A stretch of DNA of 64,000 nucleotides from Escherichia coli (GTDB taxonomy: Bacteria; Pseudomonadota; Gammaproteobacteria; Enterobacterales; Enterobacteriaceae), in NCBI RefSeq assembly GCF_013122565.1, contig NZ_CP053258.1. The stretch is one strand, 5' to 3'. This document shows positions 14,109 to 23,651 of the stretch, one piece after another. A model generated the notes under the pieces. That model searched no databases and was not told the DNA's origin. It saw only the letters and a program-made list of their open reading frames with translations. The position numbers and the translations under genes were made by a program. The first letter of the stretch is position 1; the number at the start of each line of letters is the position of its first letter.

Positions 14109-15869
14109 CTATATGCTGCATATTTTTTTATAATGTTCAAAAACATCTTTAAAAGTGTTGAGTATTATTTCAAAACCACTAAAATCAACTTTTCGTTTTT
14201 TATCCCTAACTACTTTCACAGAGAAAACATGTTTCCCATATTCAGTTTTTGAGTCCCCATCGTTCTTTTTGTTAAATTTTTTACCACCAAGAATAGTTGA
14301 TAATACATCATGAGTAAAAAGATCTTCCATCGCAGTCTGCTCACCAGTAGCACTTAAAGGCGTTAGAATGATATAGAGATTTTTAAAGACATGGATAAAT
14401 CTCATTTTTCTCATTTTATTGGTATCATCGGGGCAGCTCTTAACATTATTTTTAAGGAAATTCAAAATCTCATTAGAACCAGAATCGTTGTCCAATACCA
14501 TGATAACCGGGTGCTTAGGAATGCTTCCATAGTAGCTTGAATATTCATCCATATATCTTTCGATGAATTTTTTAAGATCTGCGCTACCTCCAGACATATT
14601 AATAAAATAACTTGACTTCTCATCAGATTTAAAAATATTCAAGTTGATATCATTTCCTTTACCGTCTGTGCTTTTCTTGAGCAACTCAGGAAATTTGGCA
14701 GAAAGTGAACGAATAGCTGATTTTAAATATACTCGATCAGTTTTGCCTTCTGTCAAGATTGTCGGGGAAGCATGTCCATGAAAAAACTTGTAGTAAATAA
14801 ATTTACTATATGCCTTCTCTCGTACATTCAGCTTTAACCTGTAGTTTTTTAATGTAATATGAATAGGCGCATATTTTTCAGGCTGTTTACTTATTTTATC
14901 TTGTATGTTATTAAATTTATCAATCTGGTCAATAAACCCAAATCTTCCCTCTAGTTTTTCGATACTCCCCACGACTAGCTTACCATCTTCATCAGGTAGC
15001 TTATATTCTCCCTTACTATAAAGTGAATGAGCTAATGCTCTTGTTTTATTCGAATATTTCCTATCAACGTTAACAAATCTATTTATAGTAAGTCCCGTAA
15101 CTTCTTGTCTCGTGGATTTGTACGAGATCCTTGTTTTAGCATCATTAATATCAAAACCAGCACGTTTTATTTCACTGACAAGAATGCTCCCCAAGACAAC
15201 CCCCTCAGGAAGAGATATTGCCAAATCGGTAGGAAATTCTTTTTTATTAGTTGAAAACGTGATGTCATCGGCATAACGACTATATGAACAACCTAAACTC
15301 TTTGCTAATTTAGCTAATCTAATATCCATAATGCTACAAATTAAGTTTGTTATCACTGGAGAACACGGGCTACCCTGAGGCAAACTTCCCTTATAGCATG
15401 CGGCTTTAGCTAAAGTAGTGGCGACAATCGGATTTAATAAGAAATCCCTATTGGATAGGAAGTACCCTCTCACTCGCCCAAAATTAAAGCTTTTGAAAAA
15501 ATCCTTAAGATCAATATTGAGTATTATATTTTTCCCACGATGTCTGAAAGCATTGGAAATTATTGACTTATTTCTTTCAAAACCAAAGGAGTAATTGTTT
15601 TTAATTTTTTTAATTTTGAAAGTTTCATCTCTACACTCCATTAAAAGATCGGCTATTCGTCTTTGGAGATCTTTCAAACTATCTTCTGGCGCAGAAATCA
15701 ATCTGACTCCCTTACCTTTTTTTGGAATAGAGAAATCTTTATACTGATTATCAGTACCAATTCTGTAAAGAATATTCGTTAAAAACACCAACTTAACATC
15801 TAGCAATTTTGCCAAGTCAGCACGAGATGCTGCGACTTTCAAAAGTAGTAATTTAGAAGTTGCGACCAT
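14109..15869 (-). CDS. ret: Retron reverse transcriptase with C-terminal TOPRIM domain (RT-TOPRIM fusion; consistent with retron-Ec67 / Retron-Eco2 RT)
   Basis: 586 aa; RT motifs [23 protein letters not shown] (res 199-202); TOPRIM-like TEGKTD (373-378) and VLDNDSG (458-464); strongly AT-rich. Confidence 0.9.
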
Positions 15870-15904
15870 AATTATATTTTATCGTAGAAGTTAGTAAGAG
15901 AGGA

Positions 15905-16040
15905 AGAACGCATGTAGGCACTCCTTCGCACAGCACAACGGCCCTATAGCGACGAAACAAGGATGTCAGGGATGCGATTCCACCTGCCATTAAAATCACT
16001 GGTTGTGATACACAACCAACAAATCTGCCTACATGCGCAT
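15905..16040 (-). ncRNA. msr-msd: Retron msr-msd-like non-coding RNA locus flanked by a1/a2 inverted repeats
   Basis: 12-bp inverted repeat cgcatgtaggca at 15909-15920 and 16026-16037 with about 105 bp between them; internal hairpin ggttgtg-tat-cacaacc; a2 lies 40 nt upstream of the RT start. Confidence 0.5.
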
Positions 16041-16171: not shown

Positions 16172-16196
16172 CAAAAGCCCGCCAGTTCTGGCGGGC
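16172..16196 (-). terminator. Rho-independent terminator ending the A/tum early transcript
   Basis: Stem gcccgccag/tggcgggc with T-tract on the minus strand. Confidence 0.55.
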
Positions 16197-16469
16197 CTTA
16201 GCAAAAACGATCCTCAAACGATCATGCAATCTCATGCAGCATAGACATGCACAGACGAGTAAAGCGAATCGGACCTTACGCAAGGTGAACTCCTCAGCGG
16301 GCATAATCAGTATGTCGGAAGATCTCTAAAAATAAATAATTCGGTTAACAGGTATGCTTACAAAAGCATATATTTGATTAAAAATCATGTAAGGGGGAGG
16401 ATCTCAAACTGAATCGCCACGGGTTTTACAAATTTCGATAGTCTCTCTAACGTTTCGGCTGAGGTCAAA

Positions 16470-16895
16470 ATGAAAAGCTTTTACGTATTAATTTTAATTC
16501 TGGTTGCAAGCTTTGTTAGCGTCCCAGTTCAGGCGGTAACAGCTAAAAACTATGAGAAAGGAACTAAAGCTCAACAGAAATCAATATCTTACCTTTCATG
16601 TGCATTCTATGGCAGTAGCACACAATTAGATCCTAGCTACACGGAGCAAGTACCTACAGCCGATATCAAGATATTACAGAAAGCAGCTTACCACGCTTAC
16701 AACGATGCGCTCTCATACTTTGGCTATGAGGAACCAGATCACGAACAACGCATAATTGATTATGCTGAATTTGTGGCGTCGCAAGAAGCTGTGTTATGGG
16801 ATAAGCCGGGAATGAATGGAAAGCAGGTAACACTAATTGCTCGTTCTCTCTACAATGAGAGTAACTGTAACTTGTTACTGGACTCAATTAAGTAG
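16470..16895 (+). CDS. AT-rich cargo gene: small secreted protein of unknown function
   Basis: 141 aa; signal peptide MKSFYVLILILVASFVSVPVQA; GAGG RBS; low GC. Confidence 0.7.
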   Translation: MKSFYVLILILVASFVSVPVQAVTAKNYEKGTKAQQKSISYLSCAFYGSSTQLDPSYTEQVPTADIKILQKAAYHAYNDALSYFGYEEPDHEQRIIDYAEFVASQEAVLWDKPGMNGKQVTLIARSLYNESNCNLLLDSIK

Positions 16896-17054: not shown

Positions 17055-17288
17055 TTAATGCAGCCAGCTGTCGTCTTCCCACACCTTCTGCATAATCTTC
17101 ATCACTTGTTTTCTTTCTTCGTCCAGTTGCAGTCCGGTCAGTTCCACACCGTTAGAGCTACCTTTGCGGATGCGAATTACCGTTTTGGGATACAGGGGGC
17201 GCAGATTGCGGTAAAGCTCGGATTCAAGGGCGTCCAGGGTAGACTGGCTAATCTTCTGCTCTTTATCGATCATTATTTCAATGCGCAT
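17055..17288 (-). CDS. DinI-family protein (Tum antirepressor C-terminal-domain-like)
   Basis: Start trimmed to MRIEIMIDKEQ... (GAGGTG RBS); pattern MRIE...LDALESEL...WEDDSW resembles DinI. Confidence 0.7.
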   Translation of the reverse strand: MRIEIMIDKEQKISQSTLDALESELYRNLRPLYPKTVIRIRKGSSNGVELTGLQLDEERKQVMKIMQKVWEDDSWLH

Positions 17289-17298
17289 AAAGGTCACC

Positions 17299-17487
17299 TC
17301 AGCTGATGACATCCATTGAGCGGTTGTATTCGTGGGTTCTGATTTTTGCCATGAGTTCATCAGTCAATTCAGAAACCCACTGCAGAGCCAGCCCCTTCTC
17401 TTCATCACTACACTCACTAGCCGCTACAAGCTTAAGAAAAAAATCAATGCGCTGGAGCTTCAAAGACTCCAAAAAATAGTCCTGCAT
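17299..17487 (-). CDS. Small protein upstream of DinI-like ORF (possible N-terminal part of a Tum-like antirepressor)
   Basis: 62 aa; directly downstream of a LexA box; separated from the DinI ORF by a frame change. Confidence 0.5.
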   Translation of the reverse strand: MQDYFLESLKLQRIDFFLKLVAASECSDEEKGLALQWVSELTDELMAKIRTHEYNRSMDVIS

Positions 17488-17529
17488 CTTTCCTCCTATG
17501 ACACCAAAGCAATACTGTATATATAACCA

Positions 17530-17545
17530 CTGTTTATATTTACAG
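17530..17545. promoter_or_regulatory. LexA box (SOS operator)
   Basis: CTGTttatatttACAG fits CTGT-N8-ACAG with AT-rich spacer; a second half-site tactgtatatata lies just upstream. Confidence 0.6.
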
Positions 17546-17639
17546 TATATAATAATCTTACTGATGTAAAACGTTTTTTTACGTTCATCAGCCTGAAATG
17601 CCTGGTATTATTAAGAGCACGAATTGTTAACCCGCGTAA

Positions 17640-20054
17640 TTAATACAGGTTCCGCCACTTATCATCTTCCTGCAAACGCTGGTTCCGATAGAAGATACGC
17701 AGGCCTGCTCCTGACGGAATACTGCCGCCGCGAAGGAGTAAATCGACCTCTTTCTCGCTGCCATCAAATCCTCTGGACTTCAGTTCATAGACGAGCTGCT
17801 GTCGCTGATGGTCTGTAATTCGCTGTTTGTAGTCTTTACGCCGTTTCGGTTTCACCAGGCGTAACCTTGCAGCCAGTTCCCGGCGCTCTTTTTTGCTCAT
17901 ACTGTGCAGGTATTCGTGCAACTCCTTGTCATCCATGCGGGTAATGTCCGTTCTGGTATCCCCATCAGCTGATTTGTCTTTCCCTTGTTGGTTCAAATTT
18001 TCAGCAAGGGGACAGTTATTGCCACGAGTCCAAGGGGCGCAAGCGCCCTGGTCGGCTACCGCCTCCTGAACGTCAACGGCTTTACGAACCATTTTCCACT
18101 TCACTGCATGAGTGCAGATCTTGCCCTCTGCAATGGGTGACCAGATGCCATAAATACGAATGCCGTGATCGCCATAGGCGGTCGGCTCTTCGTTAATTTC
18201 ATAAGCAGTTCTGATGAGGTGATATTTGCGGGGAACCAGTACGCCGCCCTGCTTCATGATGTAAGTGGCAAAACAACCAGCATCAGCAGCAGCCAGGATT
18301 GCATCAAGGCGCGGGTTATCCAGTACCGGCGCACCTGCTTTTTTGTCCCCCTGTTGCCTTGCCGCCTGACCAGCCAACAATCGCAGTTCACGGTAAGCCT
18401 GACGCCCCGGAATGCCAAAGAAGCGGAATTGCTGAACACGATGCAAAGACGCCCAGGCATTCACGTATTCAGCGTTATCACGCAGAGATTTACCCGTTTC
18501 CTTGCTGATCTCGCCAGCCAGACCACGCCCGTCAATGTTCTTACTGATGTATTTCGCGATGTAGCTTGTTGGCGTACCTTTGCGCGGGTTTATCAGCTCA
18601 GACTTAAAGCGTGGTCCCGTGTTATTACCCAGCTCCTCGCGGTCTTCACGAATGGCAAACTTACGCAACAAAGCAGTAATGGCTCGGCGATCTTTTTTGC
18701 GCATAAAACACAACAGGTGCCAGTGCACTGTACCGTCATGATGCGGCTCAGCCACCCGCACGCCATACCAGCGCAATCCGGCTTTGTGCATCGCTTTACG
18801 AAATGCAGCAAACATGCCGACCAGATAATCACTGCTTTGTCTTACCGTCGCGTTTGTCCAGGTCGGGTTTGGTCTGCCGTTATTTAGCGTGGAATGGAAA
18901 CGTGACGGACAGGTGATGGTGTAGAAAACGGCGCAGTCACCGCGCATTTCCGCGATAAGCTCCAGACCTTTAACACAGGCCATCATCTCATTGCGGCGAT
19001 GCGCAGGGTTGCTGCTGCTGGCGTTTACCACGTCTTCCATATCCAGCGTGTCGCCGTCTTCGTTCACCAGTTCATGAGAACGAAAAAACTCCAGCGACTT
19101 ACGGCGCTGCTCACGTTTATGCATCACGGCTTCATAGCTGACATAGGGAGATGCTTTTTTGCTGACCAGGCAGACAGCGCGCAACTGCTCTTCCCGCCAT
19201 TCGCAACGCATCTTCCATAATTTCCGATACCACCAGTCGGCGCACAACATACGCGCCAGCGAACCCGGAATGAGTTCATAGGGCACGGGTTTACGGCGGT
19301 TTCTTTTCCGGCGGAGTTGCTCAAACGCAGGTGGGATGACATCCAGTCGCAGGGTTTCTGCTGCCACCCTTTCCCATGTCTTGCGGATTTCTTCTGGCTT
19401 AACGTCATCGGTGGCATACAAATCGCCACAAGCTGCATCAAGGCACATGCTCATATGCGCAGCTACCAGGGTGGACAGGCGTTTCACCTGATCCTGACTC
19501 ATTTCAGGCAGGATCAGCAGGCCGTCCAGCCCTTCCTGGCTCGCCATAAAGCGAAAAGCAGTGGATAGCTGACTGTCGCGTACATGCTCCAGCCGTTCCA
19601 GACATGGCTTAATCGTCTCACGCAAATAGCGGGAATAAGCCTTTGGCCTGCCCAGGCTGCTGAAGTATTCAATACGTTGCATCAGCGGCTTGCTGATATG
19701 GGAAGGCTGGGCGTTAACGTCCGCCAGAATGACCATGTCTGGATTAAAACGCTGCTGCTCATGCGCCAGCTTTGCCCGGCTAATGAGCTTATCCTGCTCT
19801 ATTTCGCGTTGGACAGGATCACGGGATTCATTAAAGAAATAACGCTCCCAGACCTGATCACTCAGAGCCTCGCGGCGCAGTTGTTCCTGCTCGTTATCGG
19901 CAGCGTACAGAGTGATCAGGTTTGAAAGCGCAGAAACCGGCGCAACTTCCGCCGGGTCCAGATAAGGGTTAATGGCCTTTTTCGGGCTGTTCCATGAGAA
20001 TGCTGCGGCGACCTCGTTAAAGCCGCTGCAGTTGTTCATATCATCATGGCTCAT
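17640..20054 (-). CDS. Replication initiation protein (P2 gpA-like rolling-circle nickase)
   Basis: 804 aa; position downstream of early genes; stop/start overlap with the methylase gene. Confidence 0.9.
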
Positions 20055-20908
20055 GCACGCACTCCGTACATGGCAGAACTATCCACGCCACGCGAAGGAT
20101 CAAATCCCACCCAGCAGCGCGCCCCGGAAACAGCAATGATTTCTGTTGCAGATTTACTCTCGCCAGCCGACACGCCGATGCTGCGTTTTGCCTTGATGTA
20201 GTGGTGAGTGAAATTGCGATACAGCGAACGAATCAGGGATGTGTCACTGTTAGAAACAATGACCGGATGTCCTTCAGATGCTCGATGTTCAAGAACGGAT
20301 GCCAGGTGATACTGGTCATCTTCAGTGAAACCATCAGTGTGATAGCCGGAAAACGTACCGTCATACGGCGGATCGCAATACACCACATCCCCCGCCTTCA
20401 ACATCGCCAGCGTTTCATCAAAGCTGGCGCAGATAAACGTTGCCCGCTGGGCTTTTTCTGCAAATGCGCGAATTTCTTTTTCAGGGAAATACGGATTTTT
20501 ATAATTACCGTAGGGAATGTTGAAATGCCCGCTCTTGTTATAGCGACATAAACCACGGTAACCGTGACGATTGAGATACAGGAAATATACCGCTTTCATG
20601 AAATCAGTAATTTCAGTGGAGTAATTAAACTCCTGCCTTATGTTGTAATAAGCCACCTCCCTGTTTGCGATCTCAAATAAAACTCTGGCGCGAGATATAA
20701 ACGATTCACAATCAGCGGCAACCTTTTTATAGAGGTTGATTAAATCAAGATTAATATCCGCAACCAGATAGCTTGGATAATCCGTCTCCATCATCACAGC
20801 ACAGGAACCCGCGAAAGGTTCAACCAGTCGCGGGCCAGCAGGAAGGTGTTTTTTCAGTTCGGACATAATTGCGGTTTTATTTCCCGCCCATTTCAGGATG
20901 GTGCTCAT
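20051..20908 (-). CDS. DNA adenine methyltransferase (Dam family, orphan)
   Basis: Start trimmed to [11 protein letters not shown]; motif I-like FAGSCAV and motif IV DPPY (VYCDPPYDG). Confidence 0.85.
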
Positions 20909-23054: not shown

Positions 23055-23651
23055 ATGTCAACATCAAAGTACCCAAGTGAGATCAAAATAAATCCCAATA
23101 AAGGTGGTAAGGCTGCGATTGAGCGATTAGTCGAAGCCTATGGCTTTACGACACGACAGGCTTTAGCTGATCACTTGGAAGTATCAAAAAGCACACTAGC
23201 GAACAGGTATTTGCGGGATACATTTCCTGCTGACTGGATAATCCAATGTGCTCTTGAAACAGGAACCTCCCTCAAATGGTTAACTACCGGACAAGGCCTT
23301 AAGCAAAGCTCGCTGACAGCAGCTACAGAAGAGCTTGTTAAGTTTCGCCTTGCCGCAGGCAAAATGATTGAAGACGGTTCATATGTCTTCGATTCATCAT
23401 TTCTTCCTGCAAACCTTTCATCACCAATTGTTATTCAGGATGGACTCGTCACATACATTTGTGATCAAAAATTTTCTGAAGTACTTGATGGAAACTGGTT
23501 AATCAATATCGACGGAACCTATTCCATTCGAAAAATCACAAGGCTTCCTAAAGGAATGATTAAAATTACAACAGCAGAGAATAGCTTTGAATGTGCATTT
23601 TCTGATATTGAAGTGGTTGCTTGTATAAGAAGTACAATAGTCTCGAATTAA
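23055..23651 (+). CDS. cI: CI-like immunity repressor (186 CI type)
   Basis: 198 aa; position between switch region and int; N-terminal HTH-like segment. Confidence 0.7.
   Translation: MSTSKYPSEIKINPNKGGKAAIERLVEAYGFTTRQALADHLEVSKSTLANRYLRDTFPADWIIQCALETGTSLKWLTTGQGLKQSSLTAATEELVKFRLAAGKMIEDGSYVFDSSFLPANLSSPIVIQDGLVTYICDQKFSEVLDGNWLINIDGTYSIRKITRLPKGMIKITTAENSFECAFSDIEVVACIRSTIVSN

Follow-up and report, generated by a model that had tools for sequence, protein, structure and literature searches.

How does a prophage whose repressor is not cleaved respond to damage of the host DNA? The question is raised by two short open reading frames on the minus strand of Escherichia coli DNA, a 62-aa ORF (ORF1) that follows a LexA box and, after a frame change, an ORF of the DinI family (ORF2). 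The original prediction described them as an SOS-controlled antirepressor module akin to Tum of phage 186 and offered three explanations for the two frames: a frameshift mutation, a programmed frameshift, or genuinely separate genes. The analysis reported here favors, with a probability of about 85%, an SOS operon of a 186/Fels-2-like prophage of the P2 family that acts as its DNA-damage switch; such a module explains how a prophage with a non-cleavable repressor can sense DNA damage. Hereinafter ORF1 and ORF2 are called tumA and tumB.

Prophage context

The window (the whole stretch of 64,000 nucleotides that was analysed) contains the early region and most of the late genes of a P2-family prophage, that is, part of the prophage only. 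The features discussed below are listed in Table 1; the coordinates and sequences originally described are correct, and all elements of the module are on the minus strand. The tumA gene is situated directly downstream of the replicase gene gpA and before the cargo region and the portal gene, as expected of a Tum/TumA-type antirepressor, and this gpA-tumA synteny is common to 186, PSP3, Fels-2 and every other locus for which the upstream flank is available.

Table 1. Features of the tumA-tumB locus and of the surrounding prophage region
Feature	Position	Strand	Evidence and remarks
Retron type I-C, 586-aa RT-Toprim	14109-16040	-	PADLOC match, 6e-213
141-aa ORF, signal-peptide-like N-terminus	16470-16895	+	convergent with tumB
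Hairpin, 15 bp, between tumB and the 141-aa ORF	17014-17048		fold with 11+4 bp stem
tumB, 77 aa, DinI family, MRIEIMIDKEQ...WEDDSWLH	17055-17288	-	Pfam DinI PF06183, 8.2e-23
tumB ribosome-binding site GAGGTG	17295-17300	-	read from sequence
tumA, 62 aa, putative antirepressor	17299-17487	-	phrog_698, 3.6e-38; AGGAGG upstream
Predicted LexA box 2, CAGTGGTTATATATACAGTA	17513-17532	-	16/20; shares 5 nt with box 1
Predicted LexA box 1, TACTGTAAATATAAACAGTG	17528-17547	-	17/20 versus LexA consensus
-10 hexamer TACTGT	17542-17547	-	also left arm of LexA box 1; identical to annotated -10 of 186 p95
-35 hexamer TTTACA of the tumAB promoter	17565-17570	-	counterpart of 186 p95
Gene A (gpA replicase, P2/186-type)	17640-20054	-	adjoins the tumAB intergenic region
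Dam-type DNA adenine methylase gene	20051-20908	-	directly upstream of gene A, overlapping
cI, 186-type immunity repressor, predicted TumA target	23055-23651	+	Phage_CI_repr 1.2e-31, Phage_CI_C 4.4e-27
PD-Lambda-1-like defence protein, 558 aa	23672-25348	+	match 3e-120; between cI and int

Between the portal gene and tumB, the P2 cargo region is filled by a retron, in which msr/msd precedes the RT-Toprim gene, with inverted repeats at 16026-16040 and 15908-15920. A search of the whole window with Rfam at gathering thresholds gave no match, retron RNA included. The name 'retron EC67' is used in annotations of relatives for neighboring genes; the Dam-type gene is their 'retron EC67 DNA adenine methylase', and it belongs to the conserved early operon, not to the retron. 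At the position of the PD-Lambda-1-like gene, phage vB_EcoM-813R9 has a gene of the same length (1677 nt), the two being likened by length and position. Since the prophage bears both the retron and the PD-Lambda-1-like gene, its induction would control the spread of defence cargo. The 141-aa ORF had no match in PADLOC, the sole library tried.

The hairpin downstream of tumB has a fold z-score of -0.43, which is not significant overall; as its T-run is on the plus strand, it should serve as the terminator of the 141-aa ORF and would stop tumAB transcription in part at most. Just upstream of the retron, the minus strand has a canonical intrinsic terminator, GCCCGCC-loop-GGCGGGC-TTTT, at 16173-16197; any transcript running on from the SOS promoter would be halted there and not reach the retron. 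A generic promoter and terminator scan of the window gave nothing relevant at tumAB: the hairpin was missed because of its internal loop, and the promoter because TACTGT fits TATAAT at only three of six positions.

Predicted LexA operator and promoter

The intergenic region between gene A and tumA is 152 nt long and holds the promoter and two LexA boxes, which together span the promoter's -10 region. The strong box of the original prediction, CTGTttatatttACAG at 17530-17545, is confirmed as the sole perfect CTGT-N8-ACAG core within the 64-kb window. By itself, such a bare core is at chance level and not significant, with 0.61 expected per window and at least one found in 47 of 100 shuffles; with up to three mismatches to the LexA consensus allowed, the window has a single matching 20-mer and the 100 shuffles have none. 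The adjacent element, originally read as a half-site, is indeed present, but it is a full second box overlapping the first one, with a degenerate left arm (GTGG) and a perfect right arm (ACAG).

We consider conservation to be stronger evidence for the LexA box than these chance statistics. A perfect or near-perfect LexA box precedes, by 35-96 nt, all 14 tum and tumA genes taken from phage records, and seven more members of the family, strongly diverged and drawn from genomes and metagenomes, all have a comparable box at a distance in the same range, 21 of 21 in total. In six diverged Fels-2-type sequences TTTACA, the 17-nt spacing and TACTGT are all retained, the spacer sequence being different, and TACTGT is kept in all Fels-2-type relatives compared. 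The right arm of box 2, TACAGT, is likewise unchanged in ten Fels-2-type phages, with a variable spacer. At the sequence level, then, the tumAB promoter is overlapped by a LexA box in the manner of a Tum/TumA-type antirepressor, and binding of LexA to the predicted operator is probable by analogy with 186, PSP3 and Fels-2.

TumA and TumB

TumA matches the phrog_698 profile (63 positions) end to end, is 98.4% identical to STM2728 of Fels-2, and has 100% identical counterparts among the ORFs of many P2-like phages of Klebsiella and E. coli; no model of Pfam or NCBIfam matches it. In the alignment with 186 Tum that had been proposed as a check, ORF2 corresponded to residues 71-145, and BLASTP of TumA produced no match to either 186 Tum or PSP3 TumA. 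Because the pairwise comparison was blank, the homology was established with PHROG profiles, a profile search for the TumA family over 1.8 billion representatives, and hhalign. Residues 7-44 of 186 Tum match phrog_698 at 2.7e-5, phrog_8554 and phrog_1993 are matched by both TumA and 186 Tum, and hhalign of two disjoint clades gave a gapless alignment of positions 1-46 to positions 1-46 at E=1e-5. The common motif of TumA and the N-terminal half of Tum is L-x-R-I/V-x(3)-A/L-x-L/M-x(5)-C-x(3)-D/E-K/R-x-I/L-A-L-x-W/L-I/V-A/S-E-L/I. These results support a remote homology of TumA to the N-terminal half of 186 Tum, as expected of a Tum/TumA-type antirepressor.

The AF2 model of TumA (pLDDT 89.9) is a helical hairpin of helices 2-23 and 28-61; a fold search with the model returned generic matches only, all with E>1, and no solved relative. 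Gene callers often push the tumA start upstream through the promoter and the LexA boxes, giving 'proteins' of 84-109 aa (P0005, P0007, P0103 and others), and the 'levan regulatory domain protein' of MK416009 is such an extended call. In the window, the upstream frame of tumA (17496-17588, minus strand) is shut by a stop codon. For annotation, the 62-aa 'hypothetical protein' beside 'DinI-like' genes in such prophages can be named a TumA-type antirepressor.

TumB covers the Pfam DinI model completely (positions 1-63 of 63). Its amino-acid sequence is 100% identical in Fels-2, 78% identical to TumB of PSP3, and 41% identical to residues 71-145 of 186 Tum. It also matches the solved E. coli DinI structure 1GHH at 2.7e-6; the two align end to end, and the acidic C-terminal helix (...VWEDDSW) is kept in TumB. 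With 42.7 bits against the NCBIfam equivalog model for chromosomal DinI (NF007893, cut-off 111 bits), TumB stays under the cut-off and is therefore a phage paralogue, not chromosomal DinI. Binding of TumB to RecA filaments is likely from its membership in the DinI family.

The CI repressor and its pairing with TumA

The window CI contains the Pfam domains PF07022 and PF16452 and no Peptidase_S24 domain. It is thus a 186-type CI without RecA-stimulated autocleavage, the cognate repressor expected of a Tum-type antirepressor, and, having no autocleavage domain, would be unable to sense RecA directly. It is 32% identical to 186 CI and 41% identical to Fels-2 CI (29% in the C-terminal domain). As CI is only 41% identical to that of Fels-2 despite 98% identity of TumA, the genetics of Fels-2 is not automatically transferable to this prophage; that TumA binds CI is probable by analogy with 186, PSP3 and Fels-2.

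The same TumA accompanies rather different repressors. Together with a 100% identical TumA, CI proteins are found whose N-terminal domains are 82-100% identical and whose C-terminal domains are only 32-33% identical. In Klebsiella phage ST11-OXA245phi3.1 the genes compared from tumB through apl are all 95-100% identical to those of the window and TumA is identical, and CI is 84% identical in the N-terminal and 36% in the C-terminal domain. Phage Cartapus has a replacement for each of Apl, CI and Int (CI still 76% and 34% identical in the N- and C-terminal domains, respectively); between Apl of the window and Apl of Cartapus or Fels-2, similarity was not detectable. Over the loci compared (L008, L009, L004/L006), which have an identical or 98% identical TumA, the N-terminal HTH domain of CI is 62-84% and the C-terminal domain about 30-36% identical.

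Across the family, the type of TumA tracks the type of CI (186-like, PSP3-like or Fels-2-like), and a PSP3-like TumA together with a CI bearing two HTH domains is seen twice independently, in PSP3 and in locus L024. TumA identity correlates with identity of the CI N-terminal domain (Spearman 0.82) rather than with that of the C-terminal domain (0.27), a correlation that is not independent evidence, since the phages are related and the genes linked. The pattern of these pairings suggests that TumA may recognise the conserved N-terminal domain of CI. Genomic linkage and recombination breakpoints inside cI could yield the same pattern without any functional meaning.

Separate genes and alternative explanations

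The frame change between the ORFs is real, the two being 10 nt apart and their frames offset by 1. The ribosome-binding site of tumB overlaps the tumA stop codon TGA (17299-17301), and every relative compared retains all three elements at the junction: stop codon, ribosome-binding site and ATG. The junction itself varies: spacers of 3, 10, 11, 12 and 13 nt occur, and the frames are offset by 1 in the window and Fels-2, by 2 in SopEPhi and KpST437phi4.1, and by 0 in MLG42 and PSP3. Strong purifying selection acts on both genes (dN/dS 0.05-0.09: 0.06-0.08 for tumA and 0.05-0.09 for tumB), with dS reaching approximately 1-2. In Cartapus, tumA is nearly identical to that of the window (dS 0.09), whereas tumB has diverged (dS 1.08); therefore the two genes recombine independently. 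Moreover, tumA occurs without tumB in ESSI2_ev040, YenM_06.16-2 and three further loci (L023, L024 and L025), and since these P2-like lineages retain a LexA-boxed tumA, TumB would be dispensable for the antirepressor. LexA-boxed tumA-like genes with no DinI-like gene after them are located at 7453-7713 of L017, 6950-7132 of L018, and 8001-82xx of L023, L024 and L025.

The pair might be thought a 186-type tum broken by a frameshift mutation or a sequencing error, with loss of SOS inducibility, and the sequence offers some ground for it: the 25 codons before the ORF2 ATG are open in its frame, which overlaps the 3' end of ORF1, so that a single-base change could fuse the two. However, 68 phage records share this two-ORF layout, as do 1125 of 5426 complete E. 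coli genomes (about one fifth), two CDS being annotated for the module in the top-scoring E. coli records listed. Such conservation refutes a mutation or sequencing error, and the selection on both ORFs, the ribosome-binding site and ATG of ORF2, and the assignment of ORF1 to a distinct full-length family, phrog_698, and not to a truncated 186 Tum, argue in the same direction; we regard this reading as extremely improbable. None of the 120 closest TumA homologues carries a DinI fusion, the extra length of some of them arising because gene callers read upstream through the promoter. A programmed +1 ribosomal frameshift, for instance at GCA-AAA-A near 17340, could give a Tum-like fusion beside the separate products: a run of five A lies within the 62-nt overlap of both frames, and the shift needed is indeed +1. 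But such a mechanism calls for a conserved slippery site and a fixed frame relation, and no conserved slippery motif was found, the frame offset takes all three values among relatives, the ORF2 frame is open upstream for merely 1-14 codons in several of them (range 1-25), and tumB is absent altogether in many lineages. The variation of spacer and frame at the junction thus excludes a conserved programmed frameshift, to which we leave a very small probability. Of the three original options, then, only genuinely separate genes stands, the two frameshift options being set aside by selection, junction variability and rarity of fusion. Relatives keep the two as separate genes; a fused form does exist, and among the best 150 of 180 TumA-like clusters (defined at 50% identity; median length 67 aa) a fused DinI domain is confined to the 186-type cluster, two frameshifted variants of which are also among these 150. 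In the 186 record, an internal GTG start in tum yields a 76-aa DinI-only product that begins exactly at residue 1 of TumB. Judged by these comparisons, tumA and tumB are genuinely separate genes with the two-gene layout as the normal state; free-standing tumA is the common form and the fused 186 tum the exception. The word 'split' is misleading for tumA and tumB.

A different objection accepts the SOS regulation of the operon and holds that ORF1 has some role other than antirepressor of this CI, the prophage being induced by another route or not inducible, and TumB merely modulating the host SOS response. The function assigned to ORF1 comes from comparison with other phages, the window CI is strongly unlike Fels-2 CI in the C-terminal domain, and in the Salmonella P2-like prophage BTP5 the tum homologue is transcribed and no infectious phage was recovered (PMC7067206). 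Against this, P2-like prophages that are very diverged invariably combine a LexA box and a tumA-like gene with a 186-type CI that has no cleavage domain, the type of TumA follows the type of CI (the PSP3-like one going with double-HTH CI), and both the PSP3 tumA annotation and published work (PMC3121763) attribute antirepressor activity to the upstream gene. We therefore consider a non-antirepressor role of ORF1 unlikely. The original comparison with 186 Tum is supported by the same genomic position, the p95-like layout of the promoter and the Tum-related ORFs.

Proposed mechanism

For the SOS operon favored here, the following mechanism can be proposed. In a healthy lysogen, two LexA dimers would occupy the overlapping boxes over the sigma-70 -10 region and keep tumA-tumB silent. 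Upon DNA damage, active RecA would promote self-cleavage of LexA, and tumAB would be transcribed. TumA, a 62-aa helical hairpin, is then predicted to bind the 186-type CI and to sequester it from its operators, so that the early lytic promoter would be derepressed and the prophage induced, reversibly upon the return of LexA. TumB, translated from its own ribosome-binding site, most likely would bind RecA filaments and tune the strength or duration of the SOS response. Inducibility of the prophage and the role of TumB are, like the binding steps, expected from 186, PSP3 and Fels-2.

Comparison with known systems

In phage 186, Tum is an anti-CI factor that is expressed from the LexA-regulated promoter p95 and sequesters CI, repression being restored when the SOS signal decays (PMC7708051). 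The promoter p95, its LexA site and tum are annotated at the same position as the module described here, just downstream of gene A. The layout of p95 is TTCACA-18-TACTGT, and its -10 hexamer TACTGT is likewise inside the LexA box; the antirepressor part precedes the DinI-like part, as in the window, and the target is likewise a 186-type CI without an autocleavage domain. The differences are that 186 has one fused 146-aa ORF, a single LexA box and orf97 downstream (p95-tum-orf97), whereas in the window there are two cistrons, each in its own frame, and a pair of boxes that overlap. No homologue of orf97 was found in the window, where variable cargo including the retron takes its place.

The two-gene layout is shared with Fels-2 and PSP3. 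In Fels-2, the pair is STM2728 and STM2726.1, with the 10-nt junction and the double operator of the window, whereas CI, Apl and Int are unlike those of the window. PSP3 also has two genes, tumA and tumB, with a LexA box upstream, but its TumA is of a different sequence type, its genes are in the same frame with TAG and one codon between them, and the LexA box is single. The GenBank record of PSP3 names tumA ('similar to 5' end 186 tum; UV induction of prophage') and tumB, and the Fels-2 record cites PSP3 TumB. In the literature, tum of Fels-2 and PSP3 has been described as split in two, with the upstream gene of PSP3 being the antirepressor (PMC3121763), and Lemire et al. cite Bunny et al. 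on the already described tum pairs; a literature search for tumA and tumB by name returned unrelated papers only. As the tum pairs of Fels-2 and PSP3 have been published, the finding is already known, and the module adds nothing new beyond the knowledge from 186, PSP3 and Fels-2. A further system to which it can be likened, by description, is the dinI-gfoA/gftA operon of the Gifsy phages 1 to 3, which is LexA-repressed and encodes a small antirepressor and a DinI homologue; what inactivates the Gifsy repressor is binding rather than cleavage (PMC3121763). In these lambdoid phages the order is reversed, dinI being first, and the antirepressor and the repressor belong to other families.

The double operator also has a close likeness outside the phages. 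Over its whole length of 41 nt, it shares 34-35 positions with the dual SOS operators of colicin and klebicin genes, the odd GTGG arm included, and it conforms to the definition of a dual overlapping SOS operator, with two overlapping boxes and a common CAGTG junction. The colicin and klebicin operators likewise have two LexA boxes with a 15-nt offset and CAGTG in common. In 186, PSP3, ESSI2 and the Yersinia phage there is a single LexA box. The matched 41-nt operators precede a pore-forming colicin gene and a tRNase bacteriocin gene, and their flanking promoter elements and regulated genes are unlike those of tumAB. They are located on small Col plasmids (L020, 1500-1540; L021, 1501-1541; the window counterpart is at 17513-17547), and the 41-mer operator is matched by more than 1100 plasmid records. 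In colicin genes, dual boxes bind two LexA dimers, which prevents untimely expression (PMC2994835). On sequence grounds, shared ancestry and convergence under the same constraint are both possible sources of this likeness. Two minor points may be previously undescribed: the colicin-like double operator, and the presence of one TumA allele alongside several divergent CI proteins. We suggest only tentatively, as a reading that is possible and rather doubtful, that a single TumA allele serves as the shared antirepressor of heteroimmune CI proteins by way of their N-terminal helix-turn-helix domain, and that the colicin-type operator is a cassette common to colicin plasmids and P2-like phages. If the former is true, co-resident Fels-2-type prophages would be induced together; if the latter is true, prophage induction would be a late SOS function with low basal expression.
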